Below, one piece after another: positions 3,289-62,500 of a stretch of 64,000 nucleotides of DNA; the first letter of the stretch is position 1, and every line of letters starts with the position of its first letter. The position numbers and the translations under genes were made by a program. Source of the DNA: an uncultured Gemmatimonadaceae bacterium (lineage in GTDB: Bacteria > Gemmatimonadota > Gemmatimonadetes > Gemmatimonadales > Gemmatimonadaceae); contig CAVUDW010000002.1 in NCBI GenBank assembly GCA_963740355.1, forward strand, positions 192,001 to 256,000. The letters are read 5' to 3'. The notes beneath the pieces are model-generated. The model was not told the origin of the DNA. It did not search any database and worked only from the letters and a program-made list of their open reading frames with translations.

Positions 3289-4704
3289 CTACCGCTTCAG
3301 GTTCACCAGCTCTTCCAGCATCGAGTCGCTGGTGGTGATCATGCGGCTGTTGGCCTGGAAGCCGCGCTGGGCGACGATCAGGTTGGTGAATTCCTGCGCC
3401 AGGTCGACGTTCGACATTTCGAGCGCGCCGCTGGTCATGAAGCTCTGGCTCCCCTGCAGGGCGTAGCCGAGCACCGCGCCGCCCGAGTTGCCGCTGGTGG
3501 CGTACATGTTGTCGCCCGTGCGGAGCAGGCCGGCCGGGTTGTTGAAGTCGGCGAGCACGATCTGGCCCAGCGTCTGGTTGACGCCGTTGGTGAAGGCGCC
3601 GCTGATCACGCCGGTGCGGTCGATGCTGAAGTTCTGCAGCTGGCCGCTGGTGTAGCCGTCCTGGTCGCGGAGCACCGCGGTGCCGTTGCCGGCGAACTGC
3701 GTGATGCCGCCGAGGGTGCCGGTCACGCCGGTGCCGCTGACTGACGCGCCGAGGTTCATCGAGACCGACATCTGCGCGCCGCCTGGGCCGTTGATCGTCA
3801 GCGTCGGGCTGGCGACTGCCGTGCCGGCCGACGGACCACCGACGATCTCCGACTGCACCAGCAGTGCGGTGGACGGATCGAAGGTGAACTGGCCGGTGAC
3901 GGTGCCACCGCCGGCGATCGCTGCACCGGGCGTGTCGGCGCCGAGCGTGTAGCCGGGCGGCAACGACGTTTCGTCCATCTGCCAATCCCACTGGTTGGCA
4001 CCGGTCTTCCACATCCACATCTTGGCGTCGATTTTGTTGCCAAGTGCGTCGAAAATGCCGATGGTCCCGTTGGTGAAGGTGCCCGAGTTGGCCGTGACCG
4101 AGCGCGTGTCGGGACCGAAGCCGCCGACCAGCGGTCCGGCGCCGTCCGGATCGGCGGCGTTGAAGATGCCAGCCGACGAATTCAGGTTGCCTGCGACCGT
4201 GACCTTGGTGGTGGCGTGTGCGGCAACCTTCTGGCCGAACGGCAACACGATGTCGGTGATGGTGTCGTTGAGGATTCCGTCTTCGGCCATGCGACCCTGC
4301 ACGATGAAGCCGTTCGTCGGCGACACCATGCGGCCTTCAGCGTCAGGCTGGAAGTTGCCGGAGCGCGTGTAGTACGTCTCGCTGCCCTTTCGCACGACGA
4401 AGAAGGCATCACCCTGCATGGCGAGGTCGGTGTTGACGCCGGTGGTCTCGACGTTGCCCTGCGTGAAGAGCTGGTCCACGGAACCGATCAGCGAGCCGAG
4501 GCCGATCTGCACCGGGTTCACACCGCCCTGGTCACCAGGCGGACGGCTGGCGCCGGAGAGCAGCTGCGCGAAGCCTTCCTTGAAGGTCACGCGGCCGCTC
4601 TTGAAGCCGACGGTGTTCACGTTTGCGATGTTGTTGCCGATGACGTCCATGCGAACCTGGTGGTTCCGAAGACCCGAGACGCCGGCGAAAAGAGAGCGAA
4701 GCAT
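3289..4704 (-). CDS. flgE: Flagellar hook protein FlgE
   Basis: True start is MLRSLFAGVSGL (ATG 4704), followed by DVIGNNIANVNTVGFK; C-terminal LEMSNVDLAQEFTNLIVAQRGFQAN. Confidence 0.96.
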   Translation of the reverse strand: MLRSLFAGVSGLRNHQVRMDVIGNNIANVNTVGFKSGRVTFKEGFAQLLSGASRPPGDQGGVNPVQIGLGSLIGSVDQLFTQGNVETTGVNTDLAMQGDAFFVVRKGSETYYTRSGNFQPDAEGRMVSPTNGFIVQGRMAEDGILNDTITDIVLPFGQKVAAHATTKVTVAGNLNSSAGIFNAADPDGAGPLVGGFGPDTRSVTANSGTFTNGTIGIFDALGNKIDAKMWMWKTGANQWDWQMDETSLPPGYTLGADTPGAAIAGGGTVTGQFTFDPSTALLVQSEIVGGPSAGTAVASPTLTINGPGGAQMSVSMNLGASVSGTGVTGTLGGITQFAGNGTAVLRDQDGYTSGQLQNFSIDRTGVISGAFTNGVNQTLGQIVLADFNNPAGLLRTGDNMYATSGNSGGAVLGYALQGSQSFMTSGALEMSNVDLAQEFTNLIVAQRGFQANSRMITTSDSMLEELVNLKR

Positions 4705-4825
4705 GTGCGAGGAGGGATGGAGGTGGACTACAGCGTGCGAAAGTGTGTCAGTGGGAGCCAGAGCTCCACGGGAGCATCGATTGCGGCGGACACGTCGTGT
4801 GACGCGCGACCTGCGTTGCAGCCTG

Positions 4826-5497
4826 CTACTTGGTGCTGACTTCGGTGACGGACGTGAGCGGGATGTAGAGGCGGCCGACCACGTACTGCAAACCATCGGC
4901 GGTGGACTGCACACCGGTCACGGTGCCGCGCACGGAGGTGGTGTAGTCCACGGCCTTCGTCGCATCCGACGACACGACCGAGACGCGATACACACCCGGC
5001 GGCAGTTCCTTGAGCGCCTGGCCGACGACGATGTTGTTGTCACCGCTGGCAAGGGAACCCATGTTCTTCGATGCCACGATCGAGCCGGTCTTCGGGTCGT
5101 AGACATTGAGCGTGGCCGGTCCGCCAAGGCCGCTCACCGTCAGCGTTTCGTTGCCGCTGCCATCGAGTTGCAACAGGTCGCTCCTGGCCGTGACCACGCG
5201 ACCGATGTTGCTGCTCATCGCACCCGCGGCGACCTGTGAGATCAGTGCGGCCTGCGACGACGACTGCGCACTCAACGTCTCGTTGATGTTCGTGAGCTGT
5301 TCGACGCTCGAGAACTGCGCCAGCTGCGCGGCCATCTGGCTGCTGTCAGCCGGATTCTGGGGATCCTGGTTCTTCAGCTGCGCGACCAGCAGTTTGAGGA
5401 AGGCATCCTTGCCGAGTGAGTTCTTCGAGTTCATGGCCGACAGTACGCCGGCAGAATTCGACGCGGTGGTGCTGGTACTCGATCCGACGGTACTCAT
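4826..5497 (-). CDS. flgD: Flagellar hook-capping protein FlgD
   Basis: [22 protein letters not shown]...[12 protein letters not shown]. Confidence 0.95.
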
Positions 5498-7698
5498 CGA
5501 CGATCCTCCGGCTGCTCGCGGCGCGAGCGTTGACGCGCGTCGTCGGTCGACGGGCGCGGTGTGTGACGTGAGTGATCACGCGCGAACGCTTCGCGCTGTG
5601 CCTGGTCACGTGATGACTGATCGCGCGTGTTGCCCTGGGACTGGGCGTCGGCAGCGGCGCGCATGGCGGCCAGCTCGAGGCTCGGTGCCGAGGCGCGCGA
5701 GAAGGTGGCGGTGTCGGTATTGCGGGTGGCGGTGGTGGCCTGCACGCGCACACCATCGGCGGTCAGTCCACGACGCTCGAGCGCTTCGCGCAATTCACCG
5801 AGTCGATCGGTGAGTGCGGCGGCCTGCTGTGCGTTGCCGAGTCCCAGGCGCGCGTCGACCGACGTGCCGCGGGTATCGATGCGGATCTGGTCCTCGATGC
5901 CGTTCGCGTTGTCCATGCGCAGCAACACGCTGCTGAGCGGCTTGGCGGCCTGCGTCGCCTGCAAGTCCATCAGCTGCGAGATCCGATCGGCCATGTTGAC
6001 CGCCGACGCTGGCGTGACTACGCGCATCGAGCCCGCGAGATCGGTGGCACCGGCCATCGGCGCCGGTCCGCTGACGGCCAGCGGCGAGATCGCGTCGTTG
6101 CCGGAGTTGCCAGCGCGTGCGGACTCGCCGGGTCGCGCGACGTCGGCAACCTTCGCGACGGACGACACCGTGGCGACGCGCGCGACCTGCGCTACGTTCG
6201 CCACCCGGGCCATCGCCGACGCGCGAGACTCGGCATCAGCACCAGCGTTCACATCGGCGCGCATCTGGCGCGCAGGATCGCCGGCTTCACCCTGCAGGTC
6301 ACTCAGCAGGTTGCCCAGTGTCTCACCTGACACGCCGCCTTCCACCGGCAATTCCACGTGGCCTGGATCGCGTGCACCCAGCGTGCGCAGGCCTTCCTGC
6401 TTTGCCAATTCGGCGAGACGTGCGTAGCCGGCTGGATTCTGCCACTGTCCATCGACCACCAGGTCAGCGGCCAGTCCCTTGCCATGCTTGGAATTCTTCG
6501 TCCAGGTCACCACTGGGCCGGGCGCCGTACGCCCCTGCGCAAAGAGCGCGTCCTGGCGTGCCTGTGAGCGCACCGTCTCGACGATCGCGACGGTGTGCCC
6601 GAACTCCTGGCGCATGCGATCCATCACGCGCTCGAGACGATCGCGGAACTCGGGGTCGAGCCTGGCGACATCGCGTTCCACGCTAGCGGCATCGGCGTTG
6701 CGCATGGTCGTGGTGGGCTTGGTCGGGGCGGAGCCGGTCGAGGCAGTGCTGGCCGGCGCTCCGCCTGCGGTCGTCGATGCACTTGGCGTGGCCGCCGCTG
6801 CATTCGACGTGGTCGAGTCGGTTGCAGGCTGCGCAGCTGCGCCGCTGACATCGGCCTGCGGTGCACCGGCTGCTGATGCCGGCGCGTCGAAGTGATCTTC
6901 GACCAGCGCGGTCGCATCGTTCGAAGCCACCGTAGCAGCTGAAGCAGATGCAGCCAGACCTGACGCGACAGAGGTGCGCGCTGCGGCATCCATGACATCG
7001 GCGCCCAAAGCAACATCCGCACTATTGCTCGTTGACACCGTCTTCGGCTCGGCGGCATTCTCGGGGGCGTCGGCCAGCTCAACCTGCGCTGCAACCAATG
7101 GCAGCGTCGCCACCAGCTGCATCGCCGCCGCAGTCGCGGCATTCGTCATCGCACTGTCGACCATCGGCACGACGTCGGTGGTCGCGGCCTGTTCCTCGAC
7201 TGAAGCACTCACCAGATCCGGCATCGACTGCGCAGCCGAAACATCCAGCGCGACGGCAACCGGCGGAGCACTCTCCGAAGTCTCGCCAGCGACCGGCGCG
7301 GTGGTCGAGGCAGCATTGAGCGTCGGCGCGACACATGCAGCCGTCACGGCCGGAACGTTGGCGTCTTCAACACTGGCGCCTGACAACTCTGAAGCAGGCT
7401 GCGACGCCACGACATCAGCCGGCACCTGCGTCACCGCAGGCGCATCGTTGCGTGTGGCTGCAAATCGCATCGCGCCGTTGAGGAGCGCTGATTGCACATG
7501 CGCACGCTGCTGCTGCGACGCGAGTCGGGCCTTGTTCGCTGCATACTCTGCCGACGACGCGCGGGTGTCATCAGCGCGTGCCGATGCCAGCGACGTAGCA
7601 AACGTTCCTGCGTTATCACTCGCCTGGCGATCTGGCGTGTTGTTCGAGACATCCGTGCGCGCACGCGGCGGCTGCACGGTGACGGGAAGCAGGCTCAT
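5494..7698 (-). CDS. fliK: Hook-length control protein FliK with an internal M15-family Zn-peptidase domain
   Basis: Canonical position before flgD; long Ala/Pro/Thr/Ser low-complexity N-terminal half; FliK_C-like C-terminus (SVLLRMD...[14 protein letters not shown]...[13 protein letters not shown]). The internal segment carries [10 protein letters not shown] and DPGHVEL. Confidence 0.8.
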
Positions 7699-8333
7699 TC
7701 GGTGCCCCCGCCTCGACGCGGCTGCACGTTGCTCAGCGCCGCGGCGCGTGGCGCCGGCAAGCTGGTGAGAATCGCTGCCGCCTGGCGATCGCTGAGCAGG
7801 CCGAGGATGATGCTGACGTCGTGGTCGTTCATCTGGGTCAGCACGCGCGCCGCGTCCTTCGCACCCATGGTCGAGAAGATCTTTGCGAGGCGGCGCTGAT
7901 GGGCCGCCGTCTCGGCGGCGGTCGGAGCGCCATCGCTGCTTGTCGCTGCCGATGCTGCCGGTGCGGAAACGGCGACGGTCGGCGTCGCGGCGGGCTTCGC
8001 CGTCGCTGCGCCATGCGCGTCAGGTGTTGCGGCGTGTGCGGCGTCGGGGGCGCGGGCTCCTTCAGCCGCAGGCTTGGTTGCCGCAGCGACCGTCGCCGGC
8101 GCCGTCGTGTCATGCGCGGCATCGGCCACATGCTCGGGCGCGGCATGCGCACTGCTGTCGTTGGCGGCAGTGCTGTCGCCTTCGGCATGTGTGGAGTCTG
8201 GCTTCAAGCCATGCTTCTTCGCTTCCACCACGGCGGCTGCATGCACCTTGGAGGCCTGGTAGACGGAGAAGAACCCGCCGCCACTCAGCCCCATCAACAG
8301 GCCGATGATCAGTGGCACGATGAGCTTACCCAT
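7695..8333 (-). CDS. MotE/YlxF(FlbB)-like flagellar protein with an N-terminal TM and an MgtE_N-like helical domain
   Basis: RRLAKIFSTMGAKDAARVLTQMNDHDVSIILGLLSDRQAAAILTSL; lies between fliJ and fliK. Confidence 0.75.
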   Translation of the reverse strand: MGKLIVPLIIGLLMGLSGGGFFSVYQASKVHAAAVVEAKKHGLKPDSTHAEGDSTAANDSSAHAAPEHVADAAHDTTAPATVAAATKPAAEGARAPDAAHAATPDAHGAATAKPAATPTVAVSAPAASAATSSDGAPTAAETAAHQRRLAKIFSTMGAKDAARVLTQMNDHDVSIILGLLSDRQAAAILTSLPAPRAAALSNVQPRRGGGTE

Positions 8334-19342: not shown

Positions 19343-20815
<1,473 letters not shown>

Positions 20816-20891
20816 GCAGGTCAGCTTCGAGAAGGTAGGCGACGAGCCGTGCCGAGCCTCGTGGGGCAGGCGCTTCGGGCACCAGATCGCC

Positions 20892-20950
20892 GGGCCAATG
20901 CACACCCAGTGCACCACCCAGTGCAGCAGCCACTGCACTAGCCAGTGCAC
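20892..20950. repeat. 12-bp tandem repeat (4-5 copies) upstream of the sigma54 regulator
   Basis: CACCCAGTGCAC, CACCCAGTGCAG, CAGCCACTGCAC, TAGCCAGTGCAC at 20903-20950, plus a degenerate copy at 20892. Confidence 0.75.
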
Positions 20951-21095: not shown

Positions 21096-21989
21096 ATGCG
21101 GGTCACCACCTCACAGGCGCAGCGATCGCAGCTGGACTACATCCAGGGCAATCTCCAGCGCCTGGTGAAGGCGCAGGATCAGGCGGCCACGGGCAAGCGG
21201 TTCCAGCGCGGCTCGGAGGATCCGGCCGCGACGGCTGACGTGCTCCGGGCGGACGGGACACTGGCCGCCTACACGCAGTATGCCCGTAATGGCGACCTCG
21301 CGATCTCGCGGGCCAGCGAGGAGGACCGTGTCCTCGGCAACCTGCAGTTGATCACCGAGCGGGCCCGCGAACTGGCCTCGGCGCAGATCGGCTCCAACTC
21401 GGATGCCAGCACGCGCCTCATCGCGAAGGCCGAAATCGACCAGCTGATCGAGTCGGCGGTCGGGTTGGGCAACACGCGGTTCAACAACGGCTACCTCTTT
21501 GGCGCCTCGCGCTCCACCGAGGAGCCGATGGCGAATACGCCAAACTCCACGCCGCCCTACGCGACGAATGCGGCGGCACTGACCAATCCCTCGTTCGAGA
21601 TCCAGTCCGGTGTGGTCACCACGCCGAACCACAACGCGCACGAAATCTTCATCGACAGCAACACCATGGTGGCGCTGCGCGATCTCTCGACTGCCCTCGG
21701 CGCCAACAACGTGGCTGGCATCCAGGCCGCCATGCCGGCGCTCGCCACCGCCAGCGACAATCTGGGACAGTTGCTCGGCGAGACGGGCGCCCGGGTGAAC
21801 CAGTACGAAACCATCAAGTCGCAGATGCTCTCGGCGACGGTCGACACCAAGTCGCGCCGGTCGATGCTCTACGACATCGACCTGACCGACGCCGCCGCGA
21901 ACTTCGCGCAGGCGCAATCCGCCTATCAGGCCGCCCTCTCGGCGGCCAACAAGGTGCTCAACCTCAACGTGCTGGATTACCTGCGATGA
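21096..21989 (+). CDS. flgL: Hook-associated protein 3, FlgL
   Basis: MRVT...ATGKRFQRGSEDPA, NTRFNNGYLFG, GARVN, YQAAL...LNVLDYLR. Confidence 0.92.
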   Translation: MRVTTSQAQRSQLDYIQGNLQRLVKAQDQAATGKRFQRGSEDPAATADVLRADGTLAAYTQYARNGDLAISRASEEDRVLGNLQLITERARELASAQIGSNSDASTRLIAKAEIDQLIESAVGLGNTRFNNGYLFGASRSTEEPMANTPNSTPPYATNAAALTNPSFEIQSGVVTTPNHNAHEIFIDSNTMVALRDLSTALGANNVAGIQAAMPALATASDNLGQLLGETGARVNQYETIKSQMLSATVDTKSRRSMLYDIDLTDAAANFAQAQSAYQAALSAANKVLNLNVLDYLR

Positions 21990-22438
21990 GCACTGTGCTG
22001 GCTCCCGTCGACCTGGTGCACCTGTCGTCGGTGCTGCTGGGCCCTCTCGAAATTCGTCCCGAGACGATCATCACGTTCCCCGCAGGAATCCCGGGCTTCG
22101 TTACGCTGCGCAACTTCGCGCTGGTGGATACGGAGCGCGACGACCTGGTCTGGATGCAGAGCGTCGACGATCCCGAGCTGACGTTCCTGCTCGCCGATCC
22201 GTTCACCATCGTCCCTGGCTTCGAAGTGGACATTCCATCGCCTGACCTGGCGGCGATCGGTGCCACGGGCGCCCAGGATGCGCTGCTGGTACTGGCCGTG
22301 GTACAACTCGAAGGCGGATTCCCGGTCGCCGCCAACCTGCAGAGCCCGATCATCATCGACCGCGAGCGACGTCAGGGGCGGCAGATCGTGCTGCCGGATT
22401 CACGCTACGGCATGCACCACCCGATTTCGATCAGCTGA
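21986..22438 (+). CDS. fliW: Flagellar assembly factor / CsrA antagonist FliW
   Basis: ITFPAGIPGF, WMQSVDDPELTF, ANLQSPIII, GRQIVL. Confidence 0.93.
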   Translation: MSTVLAPVDLVHLSSVLLGPLEIRPETIITFPAGIPGFVTLRNFALVDTERDDLVWMQSVDDPELTFLLADPFTIVPGFEVDIPSPDLAAIGATGAQDALLVLAVVQLEGGFPVAANLQSPIIIDRERRQGRQIVLPDSRYGMHHPISIS

Positions 22439-26889: not shown

Positions 26890-26916
26890 TCAAGTTCAGC
26901 GGGCTCGTGACGAGAC
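26890..26916 (+). promoter_or_regulatory. Putative sigma28 promoter of fliC
   Basis: TCAAG-N14-GACGAGAC; a near-identical variant precedes cheY. Confidence 0.5.
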
Positions 26917-26953
26917 TCGGGGGGGAGCCGGACACCGATTCGCGGTCCCGGGG

Positions 26954-26987
26954 GGAGCACGGAAGCTCCACTAGTCAATCACGGAGG
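26954..26987 (+). promoter_or_regulatory. Two putative CsrA/RsmA sites in the flagellin leader
   Basis: Hairpin GGAGC-ACGGAA-GCTCC with GGA in the loop; a second CACGGAGG overlaps the Shine-Dalgarno. Confidence 0.65.
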
Positions 26988-26996
26988 ATTTGTCCC

Positions 26997-27770
26997 ATGC
27001 GTATTAACACGAACGTTGGCGCGTTGAACTCGGCCAAGAACGCCTTCATCAACACGATGTCGACGGAAAGTTCAATGCGGAAGCTGTCATCTGGTCTTCG
27101 GATCAGCCGCGCAGCTGACGACGCCGCCGGTCTCTCCATCGCCAACAAGCTGCGCGCGCAGAGCCGCTCGCTGACGGTTGCGGCGGCGAACTCGGAGCAG
27201 GGCAACGCGATGCTGCAGATCGCGGAAGGTTCGGCCTCGACGATCCAGAAGATCCTCGAGCGTCAGAAGGAACTGATCATCCAGCGCGAATCGACGGGCA
27301 ACAACAGCTCGGTGACCTCGACGCTGAACACCGAAATCGGCACGTTGAGCGCAGAAGTGGACCGTATCATCTCGTCCACGAACTTCCAGGGCTCGACGGT
27401 CTTCACCAGCCTGGCCTTCCAGGTCTCGGATGGCACGACGGGTGGAACGGTGACGGTGGACGCAACGCTGGCTGCTTCGTCGGTGACGCTGGCCTCGACG
27501 GCCTCGATCTCGACGGTGGACACTGCGCTGACGGCAATCAACAGCGTGCTGGCCAACATCGGTGCCGGTCAGAACCGCCTCGACTACACGGTGCAGAACC
27601 TGAAGTCGGCAGTGGTGAACGTGAAGGCTGCGGAATCGACCATCCGCGATGTGGACATGGCTGAGGAAATGGCCAACTACACCAAGAACAACATCCTCAC
27701 CCAGGCGGCACAGGCCATGCTCGCCCAGGCGAACCAGAGCTCACAGAGCGTCTTGAGCCTCCTGCGCTAA
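26997..27770 (+). CDS. fliC: Flagellin (257 aa, essentially D0/D1 only)
   Basis: MRINTN...KLSSGLRISRAADDAAGLSIA; GAGQNRL; AESTIRDVDMAEE; AQAN...VLSLLR. Confidence 0.97.
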   Translation: MRINTNVGALNSAKNAFINTMSTESSMRKLSSGLRISRAADDAAGLSIANKLRAQSRSLTVAAANSEQGNAMLQIAEGSASTIQKILERQKELIIQRESTGNNSSVTSTLNTEIGTLSAEVDRIISSTNFQGSTVFTSLAFQVSDGTTGGTVTVDATLAASSVTLASTASISTVDTALTAINSVLANIGAGQNRLDYTVQNLKSAVVNVKAAESTIRDVDMAEEMANYTKNNILTQAAQAMLAQANQSSQSVLSLLR

Positions 27771-27798
27771 TCCTGAGCGACACGTAGCATGACGCTGT

Positions 27799-27829
27799 CC
27801 GGCCGTGGTGCAGGCATGACCACGGCCGG
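27799..27829 (+). terminator. Stem-loop after fliC (terminator or 3' mRNA stabiliser)
   Basis: 11-bp stem CCGGCCGTGGT / ACCACGGCCGG; no U-tract. Confidence 0.5.
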
Positions 27830-27853
27830 CCAGCGCACCTGGAGTAACCCAAC

Positions 27854-29944
27854 ATGACGACGAGCGCGACTTCAAGCACGACCGGCACGATCAACATCGG
27901 TGGCCTGGCCTCGGGAGTGCAGTGGCAGGACCTGGTGACGCAGCTGGCGGCGGCAGAAACCGCCAAGAGCGTGACACCGCTGCAGACACGAATCTCCGAC
28001 GCCGAGAAGGAGAAGACCGCGTGGACGACACTCGCGGGCCTCGTCGGGAAATTGCAGGACACAGGCAACGCCCTCAAACTCGGCAGCGCCTTCACGAGCT
28101 TCGCGGCCAATGTCTCGCCCAGCTCGCAGACCAATCGCACGCTGCTCTCGTCCAGCGCGACCGCCGCCGCCCAGCCGGGATCCTACCGGGTGGAAGTGGT
28201 CGACCTGGCACGAGCTGAAAAGCTCAGCGGATCGGTCGTCAGTGACTCCGCCGCCGCCCTTGGCGTCGCCGGCTCATTCACCATCGCCGGGCAGACCGTC
28301 ACGGTCGCCGCCACCGATGCACTGAACGACGTCCGAGACAAGATCAACGCGCTCAACGGCGGCGCGACACCGAGCAAGGTGTCGGCGTCGATCCTCACCA
28401 GTGCCACCGGCCAGCAGCGCCTCGTCCTCTCGGCGGATTCCGCCGGCAGCACCGGCACGGGCCTCGTGGATGGAGCGGAAGGGGTGCTGCGCGACCTCGG
28501 CTTCGTCGACACACAGTCGCGCGCCGTGCCGTCGTCGGGCCTCGCGATCGCAGCGGCGCTTGGCGTCACCATGCCGCCGCCGAGCAGCATCAAGGTCGGT
28601 GACCGCACGATCAACGTCGACCTTTCGGTCGACTCCATTGCCAGCATCGTGGCCAAGATCCGCGCCGCGGGTGGCCAGGCCGAAGTGCAGCAGCAGTTGG
28701 TTGGCGGTGTCGCGTCGTACCGGTTGAGCGTTGGCGGCAACGTCACGGCAACCGCAGATGCCGGCAGCGCCGACACGATCGCGGCCCTCGGCTTCGCTGC
28801 CGGTGCACAGTCGTCGGTGCAGCAGGTGCTGGCCTCAGGGCTCGCGTTCCAGGATGCATCGAACAACGTCGCCGATGGCAACACGCGCCTGACCGACCTT
28901 CGTGCGGGTGGTGTGTCACTCGGCGTGAATGTCGGCGACACGCTGACCTTCAGCGGCATGCGCGGCGATGGCACCACGGTCACGACGTCGTTCGTGGTCG
29001 GTGGCGCCGATACGCTGCAGACGCTGCTCTCGAAGCTGAACGACAGCACCAGCGGCTTCGGTGGTGGTACGCGACCGGCATCGGCGAGCATCGACCCCGA
29101 TGGCAAGCTGCGGCTGAACGATACCACCGGCGGCGATTCCCGCCTGCGGTTGTCGATGTCGTTGTCGCCTGCGGCCGGCGGCGCTCCCGCATCGCTGCTG
29201 GGCTCCTTCGGCACGGAAACCGTGGGGCGTTCACGCGCCATGGTGAAGGGCAGCGACGCACAGGTGAAGGTCGATGGCGTGCTGATCACGCGGTCATCCA
29301 ACACCATCAGCGATGCCCTGGCCGGTGTCACGCTCAACCTGCTGCAGTCGGAGCCAGGCAGCGAAGTCGATCTCACGGTGACGCGCGATACGGACGCGGC
29401 CGCGAAGGCGATCAAGGATTTCGCCACCGCCTACAACGACGTCGTCACGTTCAACGCCGGCCAGCAGCTCACGGGCCAGCCGCTGGCGTACAACAGCACG
29501 CTGCGTCGTGTGATGAGCTCCTTCACGCAGGCCTTGCGTGTGGAAGTGCCAGAGGGCGGCGACTACAGTCGCGGCGCGCTCGCTGGCTTCACGCTCACGC
29601 GTGGCGGCACGATCGAAGTCGACGATGCCAAGCTGCGGGCCGCCATGGGCGCGAACCTCTCCGGCGTCCGTGCGCTGTTCGGTAGCGCCGGCCTGGGCAA
29701 CGCCATGGTCACCGCCACCTCGTTCGCCTCGCGCGCCGTGGATGGCACGATCCCGCAGACCGTGACCACCATCACGCAAGCGAACATGCGCCTCACCAAG
29801 CGCATGAAGGACATGCAGGATCGCGTGGAAGCACGCCGCGTGGCGATGATGGCGCGCTTCACCTCGATGGAACTGGCGATCAGCCGGCTGCAGCAGCAGG
29901 GCACCGCGCTCACGAATGCGGTCGCCGGCATGTCGGGCAAGTAA
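27854..29944 (+). CDS. fliD: Filament cap protein FliD
   Basis: GLASG...GSYRVEVVDLARA; DAQVKVDGVLITRSSNTISDALAGVTLNL; RFTSME. Confidence 0.93.
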   Translation: MTTSATSSTTGTINIGGLASGVQWQDLVTQLAAAETAKSVTPLQTRISDAEKEKTAWTTLAGLVGKLQDTGNALKLGSAFTSFAANVSPSSQTNRTLLSSSATAAAQPGSYRVEVVDLARAEKLSGSVVSDSAAALGVAGSFTIAGQTVTVAATDALNDVRDKINALNGGATPSKVSASILTSATGQQRLVLSADSAGSTGTGLVDGAEGVLRDLGFVDTQSRAVPSSGLAIAAALGVTMPPPSSIKVGDRTINVDLSVDSIASIVAKIRAAGGQAEVQQQLVGGVASYRLSVGGNVTATADAGSADTIAALGFAAGAQSSVQQVLASGLAFQDASNNVADGNTRLTDLRAGGVSLGVNVGDTLTFSGMRGDGTTVTTSFVVGGADTLQTLLSKLNDSTSGFGGGTRPASASIDPDGKLRLNDTTGGDSRLRLSMSLSPAAGGAPASLLGSFGTETVGRSRAMVKGSDAQVKVDGVLITRSSNTISDALAGVTLNLLQSEPGSEVDLTVTRDTDAAAKAIKDFATAYNDVVTFNAGQQLTGQPLAYNSTLRRVMSSFTQALRVEVPEGGDYSRGALAGFTLTRGGTIEVDDAKLRAAMGANLSGVRALFGSAGLGNAMVTATSFASRAVDGTIPQTVTTITQANMRLTKRMKDMQDRVEARRVAMMARFTSMELAISRLQQQGTALTNAVAGMSGK

Positions 29945-30059
29945 GTCATCGCGTCGGCACAGTCGCGGCGCGCTTGAACGCGCCGCTGATGCCGATACTG
30001 AACACGCAGTGAACGACGCACGAGTCTCACCCCACTTCACTCCCAGCATCCACGTACAC

Positions 30060-30473
30060 GTGACCTACCCATCACGCGCCACGCAGTACCGCGAACTGCA
30101 GGTCCTGTCGGCCTCGCCGGCGCGCCTCACGGTTCTCCTCTACGAGCACCTCGAAGTGGTGTTGCGTCGCGCCCAGACCGCGATGAAGAACAACCAGATC
30201 GAGCAGCGCGTGGAGAACCTCGGGAAGGCGCGGGAGATCGTCAGTGAGCTGCTCGGAACCCTCGACATCGAGCGTGGCGGAGAAATCGCCCTCGAACTGT
30301 CGATGCTGCACGGCTACATGCTGTCGGAGCTGGTCGATGTCGGCATGCGTCGCGACGTGGCGCATCTCGGTCGCCTGATCGGTATCGTGCACACGCTCAG
30401 CACGGCATTCGCCGAGGCCTCGAAGCAGCTCGACGAGTCGGCAGGCGCCCGTCCACTGGCCGCCTCGGCCTGA
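30060..30473 (+). CDS. fliS: Flagellin chaperone FliS
   Basis: YRELQVLSASPARLTVLLYE...KAREIVSEL..TLD...GGEIA; GTG start at 30060. Confidence 0.92.
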   Translation: MTYPSRATQYRELQVLSASPARLTVLLYEHLEVVLRRAQTAMKNNQIEQRVENLGKAREIVSELLGTLDIERGGEIALELSMLHGYMLSELVDVGMRRDVAHLGRLIGIVHTLSTAFAEASKQLDESAGARPLAASA

Positions 30474-33042: not shown

Positions 33043-35388
33043 ATGATTCCGTCGGAACTCAACGACGCCGCGTTCATCGTCATGCAGCTCGAGCCGAGCG
33101 AGCACGATGACATCAAGGCGTTACGCGACACGTTGCGACACTTCGCGGTGTTCGACGCCACGGCCAGCACGCAGGTCCGTGCCCACGCCCAGCAGGCGGC
33201 GACCTATCTCAACCTGATCCTGCTCGGTGGCTCGGCGGATGACGCCGGGCTGCTGGTACAGGCCAGCGAAGCCATTGATTCCGCGATCAAGACCGCGGAA
33301 GCCTCCTCGATCGGCGCGCCGCGCGTGACCGAGGCGGACCTGGTCGCCATCGTGCACGACGCCGGCGATGCAGACGCGCTCAGCGAATCGATGGAGGCGA
33401 CGGCGGCAGCCGCGCCGAAGAAGCGAAAGACGACGCCCGCCGCATCCACCAAGGCGACGCCGGCCGTGCCAGTGCCAGTTTCTGCGCCAGTGCAGGCCGC
33501 CGTTCCGGCGCCCGCGCCGACAGTCGTGCAACACGTGCCACAGCCTGCGGTGTCGATTGCAGCCGCGTCGGTGCCTTCGGCACCCGCCGTCGAGGTGCAC
33601 CCCACCGCGGTGGATGGTGGCACGATTCCCGATGACGCCGACCTCGCGCTGCTGGGGGACTTCATTGCGGAAAGCCGCGAAGGCATGGCAGGCGCCGAAG
33701 CTGCACTCCTCGAGCTCGAAGCCAATCCGGAAGATCTGGAAGCGATCAACACCGTCTTCCGCGCCTTCCATACGGTCAAGGGCACCGCAGCCTTCATGGG
33801 TCTCGATCGCCTGGCCGAATTCGCACACCACGCCGAGTCGCTGCTGAGCCGCGTGCGTGATCGCGAACTGCCGTATACGCAGGCGGTCGCCAACCTGTCG
33901 TTGCGCTCCAACGACGTGCTGGGCGAGTTCCTCGATGCGATCGAGAAGTCCGTGCATGCGCACGAACCGATCGCGTTGCCGCGGGACTACGCAGACCTGA
34001 TGCATGACCTGCTCAACGTCGATGCCGTGCTGGCTGGGATCGCGACGCGGACCGTCGCCGCCGCTGCACCGACGTCCGAGTCCGCCGCGCCAGTCGCCAC
34101 GACTGCTGCTGCTGCCAGTGCGTCGAGCTCGGCGCCGGTGCTCGTACAGCGCGCCGCTGATGCGGTGCGTGGTGGCGTGAAGACGGAAGCGGACCTGTCG
34201 GTTCGCGTGCGAACCGACCGCCTCGATCGCCTCATCGACATGGTCGGTGAGCTGGTCATCGCACAGTCGATGATTGCCGCCGATCCGGCCGTGACGGCGA
34301 TCGGTCAGCACGACCTGGTGAAGAAGGTCTCGCATGCCGGCAAGATCATGCGCGAGCTGCAGGACCTGAGCATGTCGATGCGCATGGTGCCGCTCAAGTC
34401 GACCTTCCAGAAGCTGACACGCCTCGTGCGTGACGTGGCCCTCAAGGCTGGCAAGGTCGTCGAGCTGGTGACCGACGGTGAAGAGACGGAGCTCGATCGC
34501 AACATGGTCGATGCGATCGCCGATCCACTGGTGCACATGGTGCGCAATGCCGTCGACCATGGGGTCGAAGGGCCGGCCGATCGTGAACGCGCGGGCAAGC
34601 CCCGCGCTGGGCGCGTCAAGCTGGCCGCCTTCCAGCAGGGCGGCAGCGTGATCGTCGAACTGCGCGACGACGGCCGCGGCCTCAATCGTGACCGCATCCT
34701 CGCGAAGGCGATCGAGAAGGGACTGGTGTCGGCGAATCACTCGCTCACCGATTCCGAGATCAACGCCCTCATCTTCGCACCTGGCTTCAGTACCGCCGAG
34801 ACGGTGACCGACATCTCTGGCCGCGGAGTCGGCATGGATGTGGTGCGCCGCAACATCGAGTCGATTCGCGGGCGCATCGACATCCAGTCGGTGCTCGGGC
34901 AGGGCACGACCTTCCAGATTCGCCTGCCGCTCACCCTCGCGGTGACCGATGGCATGCTGGTGCGCGTTGCCGATGAACGCTACATCGTGCCGCTGACCAG
35001 CATCTCGCTCAGCTTCCGTCCTGAGCCCGACATGCTCTCGACGATTCCGCCGAACGGCGAAGTCGTGATGCTGCGTGGAGAAGTGCTGCCGGTGGTTCGC
35101 CTGCACCAGATGTTCGGCATCCCGAACGCGGTCACCAACCCGAGCGAGGCGATCCTGATGATCGTCGGCGACGGCGCGCAGCGTGTGGCGCTGCTGGTGG
35201 ACCAGTTGCTCGGACAGCAGCAGGTGGTGGCGAAGGCGCTCGGTGATGGTGTGGGTGAAATCCCCGGCATCTCCGGCGGCGCAATCCTCAGCGATGGTCG
35301 TGTGGGCCTGATCATCGACGTCGCCCGCATGACATCACTCGCTCGCACCGGCGATGCACGGCCGCGCGGCCTGTCGCACGCAGCCTGA
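33043..35388 (+). CDS. cheA: Chemotaxis histidine kinase CheA with an N-terminal extension
   Basis: Hpt FRAFHTVKG, LDRLIDMVGELVI, HMVRNAVDHG, DDGRG, GRGVGMDVV, CheW-like domain. Confidence 0.96.
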   Translation: MIPSELNDAAFIVMQLEPSEHDDIKALRDTLRHFAVFDATASTQVRAHAQQAATYLNLILLGGSADDAGLLVQASEAIDSAIKTAEASSIGAPRVTEADLVAIVHDAGDADALSESMEATAAAAPKKRKTTPAASTKATPAVPVPVSAPVQAAVPAPAPTVVQHVPQPAVSIAAASVPSAPAVEVHPTAVDGGTIPDDADLALLGDFIAESREGMAGAEAALLELEANPEDLEAINTVFRAFHTVKGTAAFMGLDRLAEFAHHAESLLSRVRDRELPYTQAVANLSLRSNDVLGEFLDAIEKSVHAHEPIALPRDYADLMHDLLNVDAVLAGIATRTVAAAAPTSESAAPVATTAAAASASSSAPVLVQRAADAVRGGVKTEADLSVRVRTDRLDRLIDMVGELVIAQSMIAADPAVTAIGQHDLVKKVSHAGKIMRELQDLSMSMRMVPLKSTFQKLTRLVRDVALKAGKVVELVTDGEETELDRNMVDAIADPLVHMVRNAVDHGVEGPADRERAGKPRAGRVKLAAFQQGGSVIVELRDDGRGLNRDRILAKAIEKGLVSANHSLTDSEINALIFAPGFSTAETVTDISGRGVGMDVVRRNIESIRGRIDIQSVLGQGTTFQIRLPLTLAVTDGMLVRVADERYIVPLTSISLSFRPEPDMLSTIPPNGEVVMLRGEVLPVVRLHQMFGIPNAVTNPSEAILMIVGDGAQRVALLVDQLLGQQQVVAKALGDGVGEIPGISGGAILSDGRVGLIIDVARMTSLARTGDARPRGLSHAA

Positions 35389-35397
35389 CCTGATATC

Positions 35398-35425
35398 TCA
35401 AGCCTGACGCACGCTTTGTCGATAC
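35398..35425 (+). promoter_or_regulatory. Putative internal sigma28 promoter before cheW
   Basis: TCAAG-N15-GTCGATAC in the cheA-cheW gap. Confidence 0.45.
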
Positions 35426-35495
35426 TCACCAGGGATGCGCCGCTGTCGGCGCAGCCCATTGCGATTCCGCCCTCGCACGACTCCTTGGAGATGGC

Positions 35496-35993
35496 ATGAC
35501 CAGCACCGTTGACCGCACCGCCGCATCGCTCGGTGGCAAGTACCTGACGTTCTTCCTCGCGGGCGAGGAGTACGGTGTCGAGATCCTGCGCGTGCAGGAA
35601 ATCATCAGCATGATGCCTGTGACCCGTGTGCCGCGCACCCCGCCGTACATCCGGGGCGTGATCAACCTGCGTGGCAAGGTGATCCCGATCATGGATCTGC
35701 GCGAGAAGTTCGGCATGCCCGCGTCCACCGAGCCGGAACAGGTGATGATCGTGGTGCAGGTGGATGGTGTGCAGATCGGCGTGGTGGCTGACAAGGTCTC
35801 CGAGGTGGCGAGCATCGCCTCCGAGGACATCGACCCGACACCGGATTTCGGCGCCGAGTTCCACACCGAATTCCTGCTCGGCCTCGGCAAGTCGAATGGT
35901 CGCTTGCGCCTGCTGCTCGACATCGAGCGTGTGCTGTCGACCGACGAAGTGACGGCGATCGCCTCGATTCCGGCGCTCAACCAGGCCGACTGA
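35496..35993 (+). CDS. cheW: Coupling protein CheW
   Basis: YLTFFL..EEYG, GVINLRGKVIP. Confidence 0.95.
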   Translation: MTSTVDRTAASLGGKYLTFFLAGEEYGVEILRVQEIISMMPVTRVPRTPPYIRGVINLRGKVIPIMDLREKFGMPASTEPEQVMIVVQVDGVQIGVVADKVSEVASIASEDIDPTPDFGAEFHTEFLLGLGKSNGRLRLLLDIERVLSTDEVTAIASIPALNQAD

Positions 35994-36151
35994 TCGACGC
36001 GCTTCGGCGCACGTTCGACGTTCCCACCCGCTCGTCGGCCACTCGAGGCACCGGATCACCCAGGCTTCCCGCAGACCATCCGTGGTTGCCTGGGTGATCT
36101 GCGTCTCCGGCCTCGCGCCGCCGACTGACCGCTCCCCGCCATCCCCGCCGC

Positions 36152-36982
36152 ATGTCGTCCATCAGTAGCCCAGACACGTTCATGAGTGCGCCCGAGCTCT
36201 CGGCGGAAGACTTCCGCCGCGTGCGTCGGATCGCGTACGAACGTGCCGGCCTCGCGATTCCTGCGGGCAAGGAAGGACTGGTGCGCTCGCGCGTCTCGAA
36301 GCGCCTCCGTGAACGCCGCATCCCATCGTTCAACGCCTACCTCGACACCGTCGAGGCCGAGAAGAATGGCGAGGAGTTGGTGAAGCTGATCGACCTGCTC
36401 ACCACCAACAAGACGGACTTCTTCCGCGAGCCCGCGCACTTCGACTTCCTGCTCAACCACGTCGTTCCCTCGGTGGTTGCCGCCGGCACGCCGCTGCGCA
36501 TCTGGAGCGCCGGTTGCTCATCCGGCGAGGAACCGTACACGCTGTCGATGGTGCTGCGTGAAGCGCTGCCGCCGCGTTACGACTTCCGGATCCTCGCCAC
36601 CGACATCGGGACGCACGTGGTCGCCGCAGCCAAGCGCGGCAACTACACGGCGCAACAGCTCTCCGACGTCTCGGTCGCGCGCCGTCAGCGCTGGTTCACC
36701 TCGGGCGAGGATGGCAGCGGTACCGTCATTCCGGAATTGAAGGCGCCGATCAGCTTCGCGCACCTGAACCTGATGGCGAAGTGGCCGATGAATGGTCCGT
36801 TCGACGTCATCTTCTGTCGCAACGTGATGATCTACTTCGACAAGCCGACCGTCACCCGGCTGGTCGGACGGTTCCATGAGTTGCTGGCGCCTGGTGGACA
36901 CCTGTTCATCGGTCACTCGGAGAGCCTGACGGCGATCGAGCACAAGTACCGTTACGTGCAGCCGGCGGTGTACGCGAAATGA
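36152..36982 (+). CDS. cheR: MCP methyltransferase CheR
   Basis: TTNKTDFFRE, WSAGCSSGEEPY, IFCRNVMIYF, GHSES. Confidence 0.96.
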   Translation: MSSISSPDTFMSAPELSAEDFRRVRRIAYERAGLAIPAGKEGLVRSRVSKRLRERRIPSFNAYLDTVEAEKNGEELVKLIDLLTTNKTDFFREPAHFDFLLNHVVPSVVAAGTPLRIWSAGCSSGEEPYTLSMVLREALPPRYDFRILATDIGTHVVAAAKRGNYTAQQLSDVSVARRQRWFTSGEDGSGTVIPELKAPISFAHLNLMAKWPMNGPFDVIFCRNVMIYFDKPTVTRLVGRFHELLAPGGHLFIGHSESLTAIEHKYRYVQPAVYAK

Positions 36983-37545
36983 GTCCCATCGAATCCGCCG
37001 CACCACCGCGCCCGGTGATCATCGGCATGGCCGACGTGAAGGTGTCCGACAAGCCGGACGAGACACTCATCACCTACGCGCTCGGCAGTTGCCTGGGCAT
37101 CGTGGTGCACGACCCGGTGGCACGCGTGGCCGGCCTGCTGCACGTGATGTTGCCCAGCTCGCAGATCGATGAGGCAAAGGCGAAGGCGCAGCCGGCGATG
37201 TTCGTGGACACCGGCGTGCCGCTGCTGTTCAAGGAGTGTTATCGCCTTGGCGCCCGGAAGGAACGCATGACCGTCAGTGTGGCGGGCGGCTCGTTCTCCG
37301 GACGGTCAGACGCCGATGACACCTTCCAGATCGGCAAGCGCAACATGCTCACGCTGCGCAAGCTACTGTGGAAAAACGGTGTCCTGATTCACGTCGACGA
37401 CACCGGCGGCGTGCAGCAGTCCCGCACCATGTCGGTGAATGTGTCCACCGGACTCGTACAGTTGCGCACCAACGGCACGCTGCGCGTGCTCTCGCCCGAG
37501 ACGCCGTCCTTCCCGTCGGCGCCTGCCGTCGCTTCCCCGAGGTAG
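36979..37545 (+). CDS. cheD: Chemoreceptor glutamine deamidase CheD
   Basis: LGSCLGI, GLLHVMLP, IGKRN, DTGG. Confidence 0.93.
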   Translation: MSPIESAAPPRPVIIGMADVKVSDKPDETLITYALGSCLGIVVHDPVARVAGLLHVMLPSSQIDEAKAKAQPAMFVDTGVPLLFKECYRLGARKERMTVSVAGGSFSGRSDADDTFQIGKRNMLTLRKLLWKNGVLIHVDDTGGVQQSRTMSVNVSTGLVQLRTNGTLRVLSPETPSFPSAPAVASPR

Positions 37546-37925
37546 GGTCATGAATCTGAATGTGCTGATCGTCGACGACAGTGCCGTGATGCGCGCGATG
37601 ATTCGCCGCACGCTGTCGCTCTGTGGAATCCCGCTCGGCGAGGTCTACGAAGCCGCCAACGGCGTCGAGGCGCTCGAGCGGCTTGGTGAGCACTGGGTCG
37701 ATCTGGCCCTGCTCGATGTCAACATGCCGGTGATGGACGGCGAAGAGTTGCTCACGCGCATCCGGGCCAGCGAGGAATGGCGCGCGCTGGCCGTGATCAT
37801 CGTCAGCACCGAAAGCAGTGATACCCGACTGGCACGCCTGCGCGCACACAGCGTCGAAATCGTGCACAAGCCGTTCACTCCCGAACAGCTTCGCAATACC
37901 ATCCTCCAGGTCACCGGACTGACGC

Positions 37926-39478
<1,553 letters not shown>

Positions 39479-59550: not shown

Positions 59551-62500
59551 GTGAACGTTGCCGAACTGCTGTCGAGTGTAGCCAACACCGGCGTTGAACT
59601 GTGGTTCGAGGGCTCACGCCTTCGTTTCAGGGGTCCGCGGGGCGCGCTCACAGGTGAGCAGCGTGCGGCGCTGTCGTCGAATCGCGCGGCCGTTGTCGAG
59701 CACCTGCGCGCGGTCGCCTCGGAGCAGCTCCACTCGTTCCCGCTGTCGTACAATCAGCGTGCGCTCTGGTTCATCCACCAGGAAGCGCCGACGAATGTGG
59801 CGTACCATGTCGCCCAAGGCATTCGCATCACGTCGGTGGTCCAGCGTGACGCGGTGCGTGAGGCATTGCAGGGAGTGTCGGACCGGCATCCCATGCTGCG
59901 GACGACCTACGCCCTCTCGGACGAGGGCCAGCTGCTGCAGCAGACGCGGGGCGCGGTGGATGTGGCCTTCGATTGCGTCGATGCCACCGGCAGCACCGAG
60001 GACGAGCTGCGCGCACTGGTGGATGCCGACTACGCGCGTCCCTTCGATCTCGAAGACGGTCCGGTGTTCCGTTGCACGCTGTTCTCGCGCGCTGAGGCCG
60101 ACCATGTCCTGGTCATCTACATGCACCACATCGCGGGCGACGCCTGGTCGCTGATGATGGTGCTGGACGATTTCCAGAAGTTGTACGCGGAAGCCTGCGG
60201 ACAGCCGACTTCGCTGCCGGCACGCGTGGAGACGGCGTACGAGTCGTTCGTGACGTGGCAGGAGTCGTGGCTGGCCAGCGACGATGGACAGCGGACCGGC
60301 GCCGCCTGGCAGGCCGTGCTGGCAGCCCCTCGTGCCCAGGTCGAGCTGCCGCCAGACCGGGCGCGCCCGGAACGCAAGACATTTCGCGGGGCGACGATCT
60401 CGTTTTCGCTGGAGGTCGAGACCGTGACCCGGCTGCGACAGGTGGCGCGCGAGCAGCATACCACCCTGTTCGTCGTGTTGCTCGCCGGCTACGTGGCGAT
60501 GCTGCATCGACTCACCGGTGAGACCGACGTGATCGTCGGCACGCCAACATTTGGTCGTACCGATAGTGCGTACTCCCGTGTGGTCGGGCACTTCGTGAAT
60601 CCTGTGCCGCTGCGGACACGCGTCGAATCGACCATCAGCTTCGCGGAACTGGTGGCGCGCGTCGGTCGCACGGTGCGAGCCGCTCTCGATGGACAGGAAT
60701 ATCCGTTCCAGCTGATCGTGCAGCATGCGCATGTGGTGCGCGATCCCAGCAGGTCGCCGCTGTTCGAGGCCTTCTTCGGATTGCTGGCGTTCGATCAGGT
60801 GCGGCATGGTGCCGATCCCGTTCCGCCGGCCGATGGGCCGCGCGATTTCGGTGGCCTGCGCGCCGAGCCGTATTCGCTTCGACAGCAGGAAGGCCAGTTC
60901 GATCTCTCGTTGCAGCTGAGCGAGCATGACGGCGGGCTCGATGGCTGGCTGATTTTCAATCCGGACATTCATGATGCCGACACCATCCAGCAGGTGGCCG
61001 CTCACTACACCGCACTCCTGGGCGGCGCGCTGGTGAGCATGGAGTCAACCGTTGCCGAGTTGCCGCCGCACGCCGATCGTCTGGGTGCCGATCACACGTC
61101 GGCGCACGCGGGGCCGCCGGCGCACGTGCAGCAATTGCTCGATGAACTGGCCGCGCGCGACGTGCGCCTGACGCTCGACGGGGAGAAGCTCAAGGTCAAC
61201 GCGCCGGTGGGCGCGCTGGACGACAGCCTGAAGGCACGCCTGTCACAGGCGAAGGCTGAGATCATCACGGCGCTGCGGGCCGCACCCGAGCCCCGTTCGG
61301 TGTTGCGGCGTGTGCCACGCACGGCGCCGCTGCCGATCTCGTATGCCCAGCAGCGCCTCTGGTTTCTCGACCGCATGGATCCGGGGAACTCGCATTACAA
61401 CATCTCGCTGCCGCTGCGGATCACCGGGCCGCTTGACGTTGCGGTGATGACGCAGGTGCTGGATGCGATTCCGCATCGCCACGAGGCGCTCCGGATCCGC
61501 ATCCGTGACATCGACGGCAACCCGCGCGCTGAATTGATGGAGTCGGTGGGCAGTGTGGTGCGGCTGGTGGACATCAGCGGCCTTGCGCCCGAGGCGCGTG
61601 CGGCCGAGTCGCATCGCCTGCTGCTGCAACAGATGGTCGTGCCTTTCGATCTCGCGACCGGTCCCCTGATCTCGTGCCTGCTCGTGCGTCACTCGGACGA
61701 CGAGTTCGTGCTGATGATCAGCATGCACCACATCGCGTCCGACGGCTGGTCGTTGAGCGTGGTCGTCGGCGAAATCTGCGCGGCGTATGAGGCGGCGATG
61801 GCCGGCCTGCCGTCACCGCTCGCGCCGCTGGAGGTGCAGTACGTGGACTTCGCCGCCTGGCAGCGCGAGCAGATGAATTCCGGCATGCTGGTGCAGCAGC
61901 TGGGTTATTGGCAGCGGGAGCTGGCTGGGGCACCGGTGCTGCTGGAACTGCCGACGGACCGTCCACGCCCCGCGGTGCAGACCTACCGCGGCACCCGCCG
62001 GAAGTACCGGATGGAGCCGGAACTGCTGGCTGGCCTCAAGGCCGTCAGCCGCGCCAGCGACGCCACACTCTACATGACGTTGCTGGCCGGGTGGCAGGTG
62101 CTGCTGCATCGCTATTCGGGGCAGGACGACATCGTGGTCGGCTCGCCGATGGCGAACCGTGATGACCCGGCGCTCGAGCCGCTGGTCGGCTGCTTCGTGA
62201 ACAACGTGGTGATGCGTGGCCGTCTGGAGGGTAACCCCACCTTCCGCGAGTTTCTCGGTCGCACGGCGACGACGGTCCTCGGCGCATTCGATCATCGTGA
62301 GTTGCCGTTCGATCGGCTCGTCGAAGGGCTGCGGCCGGAGCGGAGTACGAGCCACGCGCCGGTGTTTCAGGTGCTCTTCACGCTGCAGTCGTTCCCGGTG
62401 GACAACCGACACCCGGCGGGCCTGCATCTGGAATTGCTGAACATCGAAGACGACGAGCGCGGAACCGCCCGTTTCGACCTCACACTCGAAATGGACGAGC

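Follow-up and report, generated by a model that had tools for sequence, protein, structure and literature searches.

The 64,000-nucleotide stretch of DNA analysed here (hereafter the window), from contig CAVUDW010000002.1 of an uncultured Gemmatimonadaceae bacterium, carries a minus-strand flagellar operon in its first 15 kb. The genes of this operon are arranged in the order flgB, flgC, fliE, fliF, fliG, fliH, fliI, fliJ, a gene with an MgtE_N domain, a gene in the position expected for fliK, flgD, flgE, fliL, fliM, fliN and fliO. The fliK slot, which is defined by this order and by Pfam matches on the neighbouring genes, is occupied by an open reading frame (ORF) at 5494..7698 on the minus strand, which begins with ATG and encodes 734 amino acids (aa). 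It shares four nucleotides with each neighbour, namely with the stop of the upstream MgtE_N gene (ylxF/motE-like; 7695..8333, minus strand; Pfam MgtE_N E = 2e-5) and with the start of the hook cap gene flgD (4826..5497, minus strand; Pfam FlgD E = 1.1e-22). Our analyses confirmed that this gene is the fliK of its host, and that the hook-length ruler it encodes carries a LAS/M15 peptidase domain embedded between the ruler region and the switch domain. The host assembly (5.45 Mb) belongs to the phylum Gemmatimonadota, and the nearest homologues of the protein are labelled Gemmatimonadaceae.

A preliminary description made from the sequence alone had proposed that the gene between the motE-like gene and flgD is fliK, and this assignment was upheld by operon order, by the fold of the C-terminal domain and by a search of the whole genome for other Flg_hook candidates. 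FliK is the secreted ruler that brings hook growth to an end through a switch of the flagellar type III export gate. The possibility that a normal fliK resides elsewhere in the genome was rejected because the sole other Flg_hook match is a noise match (E = 0.89). Pfam detects no M15 family in the whole protein and reports only a Flg_hook (PF02120) match at aa 604-657 that, at 22.3 bits, lies below the cut-off of 29.8 bits; searching with the C-terminal part alone raises the score to 24.0 bits, which is still below the cut-off. NCBIfam models yield no match on the whole protein, and a precomputed PF02120 match exists on some homologues. When aa 327-734 were modelled with AlphaFold2 from an alignment of 64 sequences, the predicted local distance difference test (pLDDT) score was 85-91 over aa ~569-654 and ~90-98 over aa ~342-452, and was low elsewhere. 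Comparison by VIA-align matches the C-terminal model (domain boundaries aa 565-656; 5731..6006, minus strand) to Salmonella FliK_C (2rrl; Z 9.1, root-mean-square deviation 2.5, 82 aligned residues) and to the T3S4 switch domain of PscP (5cuk; Z 8.6), and a T3S4 (FliK_C) fold is therefore present at the C-terminus. Homologues are annotated in public records as ‘M15 family metallopeptidase’, ‘YcbK (DUF882 family)’, ‘D-alanyl-D-alanine dipeptidase’ or hypothetical proteins, but never as FliK, and the flagellar gene sets of Gemmatimonadota therefore seem to lack this gene.

The protein comprises a disordered N-terminal part, a compact LAS/M15 domain at aa ~340-452 and the FliK_C/T3S4 domain at aa ~565-656. 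Its first 40 residues (7579..7698, minus strand) hold candidate signals of an early substrate of the flagellum's type III secretion system (fT3SS), consisting of the small hydrophobic residues LLPVTV at aa 3-8 and F33-x-x-x-L37, of which F33 and L37 are nearly invariant among 64 homologues. This layout agrees with the two early-substrate signals described for Salmonella FlgD and FliK (PMC8983047), such that the N-terminus looks like that of an early fT3SS substrate. A hydrophobic signal of the Sec or Tat type was not seen when the N-terminus was read, and no transmembrane hydrophobic stretch occurs in the protein sequence. The ruler region that follows (aa 41-335; 6694..7578, minus strand) is rich in Ala, Thr, Ser and Pro, varies in length between homologues and is poorly conserved, with a mean pairwise identity of 23%. 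Beyond the switch domain lies a disordered basic tail (5497..5730, minus strand; mean identity 34%) that ends in a conserved R-S-R-R-E-Q-P-E.

The middle domain (aa 340-452; 6343..6681, minus strand) was assigned to the CwlK/Ply500-like part of the M15 group by sequence, profile and fold comparisons. The preliminary description had recognized an M15 peptidase here from a peptide that is indeed present in the protein. Among 13 matches listed by phmmer against the PDB, Ply500 (2vo9; E = 2.6e-7) and LysB4 (6akv; E = 2.9e-7) lead, and the other 11 have E values of at least 0.1 and are unrelated. A profile made from 43 sequences of the domain improves these values to 4.3e-11 for Ply500 and 1.6e-10 for LysB4. 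At the level of sequence models the M15 assignment is divided: the Pfam M15 models stay below their cut-offs, and the 43-sequence profile reaches Ply500. Foldseek ranks Ply500 first for the M15 model (E = 6.7e-7), and the four best VIA-align matches, LysECD7 (Z 11.7), Ply500 (11.5), LysB4 (11.4) and ChiX (11.2), are all L-Ala-D-Glu endopeptidases that score ~2 Z above Hedgehog-N, LdcB, VanY and VanX. Both Foldseek and VIA-align therefore place a LAS fold in the middle of the protein, and the predicted structures bear out the two-domain reading of the preliminary description.

Relatives outside the flagellar setting point in the same direction. A stand-alone PF13539 protein is 40% identical to the M15 domain over 115 aa, with the D-x-x-H-x-E motif inside the alignment, and 36 of 47 short relatives carry PF13539 and/or PF02557. 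Searching phages by tblastn returned 71 records, and the 12 that were listed are 30-42% identical to the domain; of these 12, eight bear the annotation L-Ala-D-Glu endopeptidase or endolysin, and another is the PlyA006 gene. By analogy with these nearest relatives, and from them only, the bond cleaved is predicted to be L-Ala-D-Glu.

The predicted active site is complete. R377 of the R-S-x-x-x-Q motif (6568..6570), H405 of S-x-H (6484..6486), D412 of A-x-D (6463..6465), and D444 and H447 of D-x-G-H (6367..6369 and 6358..6360), all on the minus strand, are invariant in three alignments (A1, A2 and A3). H405, D412 and H447 are the predicted first, second and third zinc ligands, and their codons are those named in the preliminary description. 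H405 aligns with S-N-H and D412 with V-A-V-D of Ply500, and D444, the candidate general base, aligns with the Asp of D-R-P-H-F-E in the PF13539 protein. We take H405 to be a zinc ligand partly on general grounds. Its role is also indicated by the comparison of TagX with Ply500 (PMC5061870). The site thus displays a His-x6-Asp pair and a distal His preceded three residues earlier by an Asp, and 41 residues separate the S-x-H motif from H447 in 79 of the 80 loci that match the pattern strictly.

These features are retained in nearly every homologue. Of 120 listed homologues, 119 show both the S-x-H-x-x-G-x-A-x-D and the D-x-x-H motif (the exception is P0111), as do 83 of 84 public-genome loci and all 115 additional cluster representatives. 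In three of the 83 loci a Gly within the motif is replaced by Ala while the ligands are unchanged, and the remaining locus, from genome G140, is degenerate. Averaged over pairs of sequences, identity is 66% in the M15 domain and 58% in a downstream Val-Ala repeat; FliK_C reaches 50%, the tail 34% and the N-terminal part 23%, which makes the enzyme part the most constrained part of the ruler. Sequence conservation therefore supports an intact M15 active site on which constraint is stronger than on the remainder of the protein.

The repeat just mentioned consists of ~8 (polar-Val-Ala) triplets at aa 498-521 (6136..6207, minus strand), ~95 aa beyond the S-x-H motif, in a region where pLDDT falls below 50. 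It is conserved along with the M15 module, being present in 116 of 120 homologues that carry the peptidase and absent from five FliK proteins that lack it as well as from the degenerate G140 copy. Judged from these sequences, the repeat seems to travel with the peptidase module. We also considered a tandem repeat in the DNA beneath it, and found none at the site. Two homologues (L063:491-2635, plus strand, and L076:412-3486, plus strand) carry a degenerate partial M15 copy in addition, reduced to the first helix plus a later one and lying ~200-250 aa upstream of the intact domain, and this arrangement suggests an internal duplication.

Both domains reside in a single open frame in 81 of 84 independent loci, and the other three are cut by contig ends. 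An assembly chimera, or two separate genes, was therefore rejected, and the fusion recurs in relatives from three families. The distribution was established in 401 Gemmatimonadota genomes, of which 99 encode FliG_C and are counted as flagellated. These 99, the host genome (G000) included, fall into families designated f1 (48 genomes), f2 (32), f4 (2), f7 (4) and f10 (13). A query consisting of aa 327-734 of the host FliK matches 58 genomes, namely all 48 flagellated f1 genomes, both f4 genomes, all four f7 genomes and four non-flagellated genomes (two f2 and two f8) whose matches are small frames holding only M15. No match to this query was found in the 32 flagellated f2 or the 13 f10 genomes. 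The M15 part lies in a frame in the fliK slot in 53 of the 54 flagellated genomes of families f1, f4 and f7, one degenerate copy included, and the remaining genome has a FliK without M15. The fusion is thus conserved across three Gemmatimonadota families.

The two exceptions both belong to f1. G089 is matched by the FliK_C part only, and its FliK (L008:1420-3357, plus strand; 645 aa) lacks the M15 domain. In G140 the M15 match is weak, and the copy (L092:1334-3055, minus strand) has decayed, with His changed to Gln, Asp changed to Glu, and the D-x-G-H motif and the Val-Ala repeat gone. The FliK proteins read from the families not matched by the query carry Flg_hook only, and measure 481-838 aa in four f2 genomes and 954 and 1028 aa in two f10 genomes.

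Larger sequence collections hold further members of the family. When sequences are clustered at 50% identity, 454 cluster representatives match the domain profile at E <= 1e-30. Among the best 150 there are 115 new representatives; FliK_C is present as well in 101 of them, and of the 14 without it 12 are short fragments. A survey of 185,579 species genomes gave 481 confirmed loci. The best 80 of these, for which taxonomy is visible, are all labelled Gemmatimonad-, Longimicrob- or plain ‘bacterium’, so that no fusion outside Gemmatimonadota was seen among them. The Atlas clusters are likewise Gemmatimonadota.

An enzyme on the ruler invites a comparison with the rod protein FlgJ. The textbook FlgJ carries a glucosaminidase domain, not SLT. 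The host FlgJ, encoded ~14 kb before the window, is 123 aa long and consists of the Rod-binding domain only, which agrees with the suggestion in the preliminary description that the fusion might accompany a FlgJ without its glucosaminidase. Neither a Glucosaminidase domain nor a second copy of the M15 domain was found in the host genome, and the three SLT genes of the host are all > 900 kb from the flagellar genes. A Pfam scan of 75 ORFs over ~98 kb of the flagellar and chemotaxis region, among them 39 others inside the window and 26 from the 34 kb that precede it, covered flagellar, chemotaxis and unrelated genes and revealed no wall-hydrolase domain.

Across the phylum, the Rod-binding domain was searched for in 80 of the 99 flagellated genomes (29 of 48 in f1 and all of the others) and was found in all 80. 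In f10, all 13 genomes have an SLT domain directly after the Rod-binding domain, and 12 of them have both in one frame; the fused proteins are ~292-306 aa long, and both domains were confirmed in the 292-aa FlgJ of G002 (L009:984-1862, minus strand). Nine f1, f4 and f7 genomes have long FlgJ frames that might have held a similar fusion, but this was rejected because no SLT was found near FlgJ in any of the nine, and the length of these frames probably reflects a lack of stop codons in GC-rich DNA. SLT was also not found near the flagellar genes of four f2 genomes or of G089. Gemmatimonadota therefore show three states, in which the wall-cleaving domain is an M15 on FliK, an SLT on FlgJ, or neither. 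A strict rule tying M15 in FliK to the absence of a hydrolase from FlgJ, in both directions, was rejected as stated, since f2 has neither. The correlation proposed in the preliminary description is thus only partial: f10, where FlgJ carries SLT and M15 is lacking (13 of 13), fits it, and f2 does not, its short FlgJ frames occurring with FliK proteins that lack M15 in the four genomes read and with no M15 match in the others.

The rod of a flagellum must cross a peptidoglycan mesh whose pores are far smaller than the rod. We propose, with a probability of roughly 55%, that the FliK described here carries a catalytically competent M15 peptidase that is exported by the fT3SS and cuts peptide stems at the growing rod. 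Because neither a Sec nor a Tat signal is seen, the protein could reach peptidoglycan only via the flagellar export channel, through which it would pass in an unfolded state, being an early substrate. Copies that emerge while the rod grows within the periplasm would then fold, bind zinc and cut peptide stems beside the rod tip, and this cutting would loosen the mesh and let the rod pass. Once the hook lies outside the outer membrane, later copies would exit the cell, making the activity self-limiting.

Several published systems make these steps plausible. Salmonella FliK is reported to be secreted continuously during rod and hook assembly, and fusions of FliK to beta-lactamase without a Sec signal are described as being exported to the periplasm and active there, including at wild-type-like levels (PMC13344023). 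Engineered Salmonella thus offer a reported precedent for an enzyme that works in the periplasm when fused to FliK (PMC13344023). Delivery of a hydrolase through the export channel is described for the Salmonella rod cap FlgJ (PMC8517470), and TagX, a PF13539 L,D-endopeptidase like Ply500, is reported to be required for the passage of a type VI secretion system (T6SS) through the wall (PMC5061870).

More tentatively, and at somewhat less than even odds, the export gate itself might dose the stem-cutting FliK at the rod tip for as long as the tip is periplasmic, with penetration of the outer membrane ending the cutting. The wall-cutting domain would then have been reassigned among early substrates within the phylum, residing on FliK in three families, on FlgJ as SLT in another and on neither in a fifth, and the Val-Ala repeat may hold or regulate the enzyme.

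A number of observations weigh against the proposal that FliK cuts the wall for the rod. The Pfam evidence is weak, because the excised M15 part scores below all cut-offs (VanY, E = 0.025 and 14.8 bits against a cut-off of 25 bits; Peptidase_M15_3, E = 0.041), and Pfam M15 models find only weak matches on 17, 14 and 4 of 43 relatives. The HMMER alignments to Ply500 also end short of the third ligand. Export, folding after export and activity are steps that we infer, as are the bond specificity and the role in wall penetration. Moreover, only FliK released before penetration of the outer membrane could act on the wall of its own cell, and later copies would leave it. Natural loss in G089 and decay in G140 have occurred inside the fusion-bearing family f1, and the domain is therefore dispensable at least there. 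The 32 flagellated f2 genomes have short FlgJ frames together with FliK proteins that lack M15 in the four cases read and give no M15 match in the rest. With no SLT near the flagellar genes of those four, they imply that the phylum does not generally depend on a dedicated hydrolase that is exported. Lastly, the hydrolase activity of Salmonella FlgJ is described as enhancing flagellum assembly without being required for it (PMC13584718). Given this report and the f1 and f2 relatives that manage without the domain, the peptidase activity probably makes assembly more efficient without being indispensable for it.

Among the alternatives, the one that survives best, although we consider it unlikely, is that the domain is an active peptidoglycan peptidase exported for a job other than rod penetration, such as local remodelling that lets the P-ring or stator be anchored, trimming stems around the finished basal body, or, once released into the medium, attacking the walls of other cells. 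The evidence for activity and export applies equally to such roles, flagellated relatives manage without the domain, and FliK exported after penetration of the outer membrane is reported to end up outside the cell (PMC13344023). However, the lack of a FlgJ hydrolase in the host, together with the alternative FlgJ-SLT fusion in f10, points to the step of wall passage. An attack role would in addition presumably need more protein than an intermittently exported ruler gives, and in diderm targets the wall is out of reach of a peptidase acting from outside.

A non-catalytic M15 module is less probable still. Here the domain would serve the ruler by binding peptidoglycan or by folding, for example as a spacer, a ratchet that folds on exit or an anchor that sets length. 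Its place inside the ruler segment, to which it adds ~113 residues, and the conserved Val-Ala triplet repeat that accompanies it are consistent with a structural role, and the N-terminal domains of Hedgehog proteins share the fold without being wall peptidases. A spacer would not need three metal ligands, a candidate general base and the R, Q and S residues of the substrate site to be invariant or nearly so over hundreds of sequences, however, and G140, the one clearly degenerate copy, has lost ligands and repeat together. Action in the cytoplasm before or without export is comparably improbable. The domain would there be either a VanX-like dipeptidase on wall precursors or a folded plug, delaying the export of FliK and thereby adjusting when the switch occurs. 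This reading fits the lack of a Sec signal and the presence of cytoplasmic VanX-type M15 enzymes among the structural matches (Z 8.4). The best matches in sequence and fold, however, are L-Ala-D-Glu endopeptidases that act on the wall, ~2 Z above the VanX/VanY group, the phage matches are endolysins, and the protein shares with exported rulers both its N-terminal features and a T3S4 domain.

FliK of Salmonella and E. coli and the rulers YscP and PscP share with the host protein the slot before flgD and flgE, the disordered ruler region, the T3S4 fold, the disordered tail and the N-terminal layout of an early substrate. The host protein alone has an M15 peptidase and a Val-Ala repeat between ruler and T3S4, and to our knowledge the known rulers have no enzymatic domain. 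Within subfamily C of M15, Ply500, LysB4, LysECD7, ChiX and CwlK share with the host domain both the fold and the motifs R-S/T-x-x-x-Q, S-x-H-x-x-G-x-A-x-D and D-x-x-H-x-E. Identity to the host domain is 28-32% for Ply500, LysB4 and LysECD7 and 22-23% for ChiX. The host domain is shorter (~113 aa) and has a smaller loop ahead of the last motif, and it scores below the Pfam gathering threshold. Members of this subfamily are endolysins or Sec-exported autolysins, whereas the host domain is embedded in a secreted flagellar protein.

A functional parallel is FlgJ of Salmonella and of f10, with which the host FliK would share a wall-cleaving domain on an early flagellar type III substrate that is delivered through the growing structure, as described for FlgJ (PMC8517470). 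The carrier here is the ruler rather than the rod cap, and by analogy with its relatives the enzyme is expected to cut peptide stems, not glycan. The Rod-binding domain of the FlgJ-type hydrolase is absent from the host FliK by Pfam and resides in the separate 123-aa FlgJ. M15-FliK may work like the enzyme half of FlgJ, though it is not a FlgJ. TagX of Acinetobacter, itself a Ply500-like PF13539 L,D-endopeptidase whose gene lies in the cluster of an envelope-spanning machine (PMC5061870), offers a second parallel. It is an inner-membrane protein with transmembrane segments that serves a T6SS, whereas the host FliK has no such segments, is encoded in a flagellar operon and is predicted from its sequence to be delivered by the export channel.

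How flagella cross the wall when FlgJ lacks an enzyme domain is only partly explained. SltF of Rhodobacter is exported by the Sec pathway. It and LTaseBb of Borrelia are stand-alone enzymes that cleave glycan, in contrast to the candidate described here, which is a peptidase fused to FliK. Both are reported to solve the same problem where FlgJ has no enzyme domain, and the known answers in species with a single-domain FlgJ are separate lytic transglycosylases that bind FlgJ (PMC8517470). A peptidase-bearing ruler, if our reading is correct, would be a third solution, one that cuts peptide stems rather than glycan, and it would be a natural counterpart of the laboratory FliK-enzyme fusions used as reporters of periplasmic secretion. 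The principle, in which an early substrate of flagellar export carries a domain that cuts the wall, is known, and this is a variant of it in which the carrier is different and the chemistry probably is too. No description of a FliK-M15 fusion was found in the full-text literature, subscription journals aside, in keeping with the preliminary description, which knew of none. The phylum also provides a natural comparison set, in which the fusion is present, lost, decayed, replaced by FlgJ-SLT or absent together with it, and the question is therefore testable.

Other features of the region were recorded in the course of this work. The hook gene flgE is listed at 3289..4914 on the minus strand (Pfam), with a start that overlaps flgD; the true start probably lies further downstream, because BLAST matches of relatives begin near aa 63-71. 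The same operon order recurs in the f2 genomes G045, G122, G165 and G127 (L004, L005, L010 and L011), where FlgE is ~150-190 aa longer (690-728 aa versus 541 aa). The GC content at third codon positions is 0.73 for the fliK gene (0.68 in the N-terminal part and 0.75 in the M15 part) versus 0.78-0.85 for its neighbours. This difference is too small to argue for recent transfer.

The remaining motility genes of the window, identified by Pfam, occupy 19343-20950 (minus strand) and 21096-22438, 26907-30473 and 33043-39478 (plus strand). They include a sigma-54 activator with a receiver domain and a gene with a flagellin N-terminal domain only, followed by fliW, flagellin, fliD and fliS and then by cheA, cheR, cheD and cheB. 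The csrA gene adjoins flgK just before the window (L104:359-670), and the presence of fliW and csrA suggests FliW-CsrA control of flagellin. At the far end of the window, a large frame at 59551-64000 (plus strand) runs past the window end and is a non-ribosomal peptide synthetase, as judged from its two TubC_N docking domains and its condensation and AMP-binding domains.

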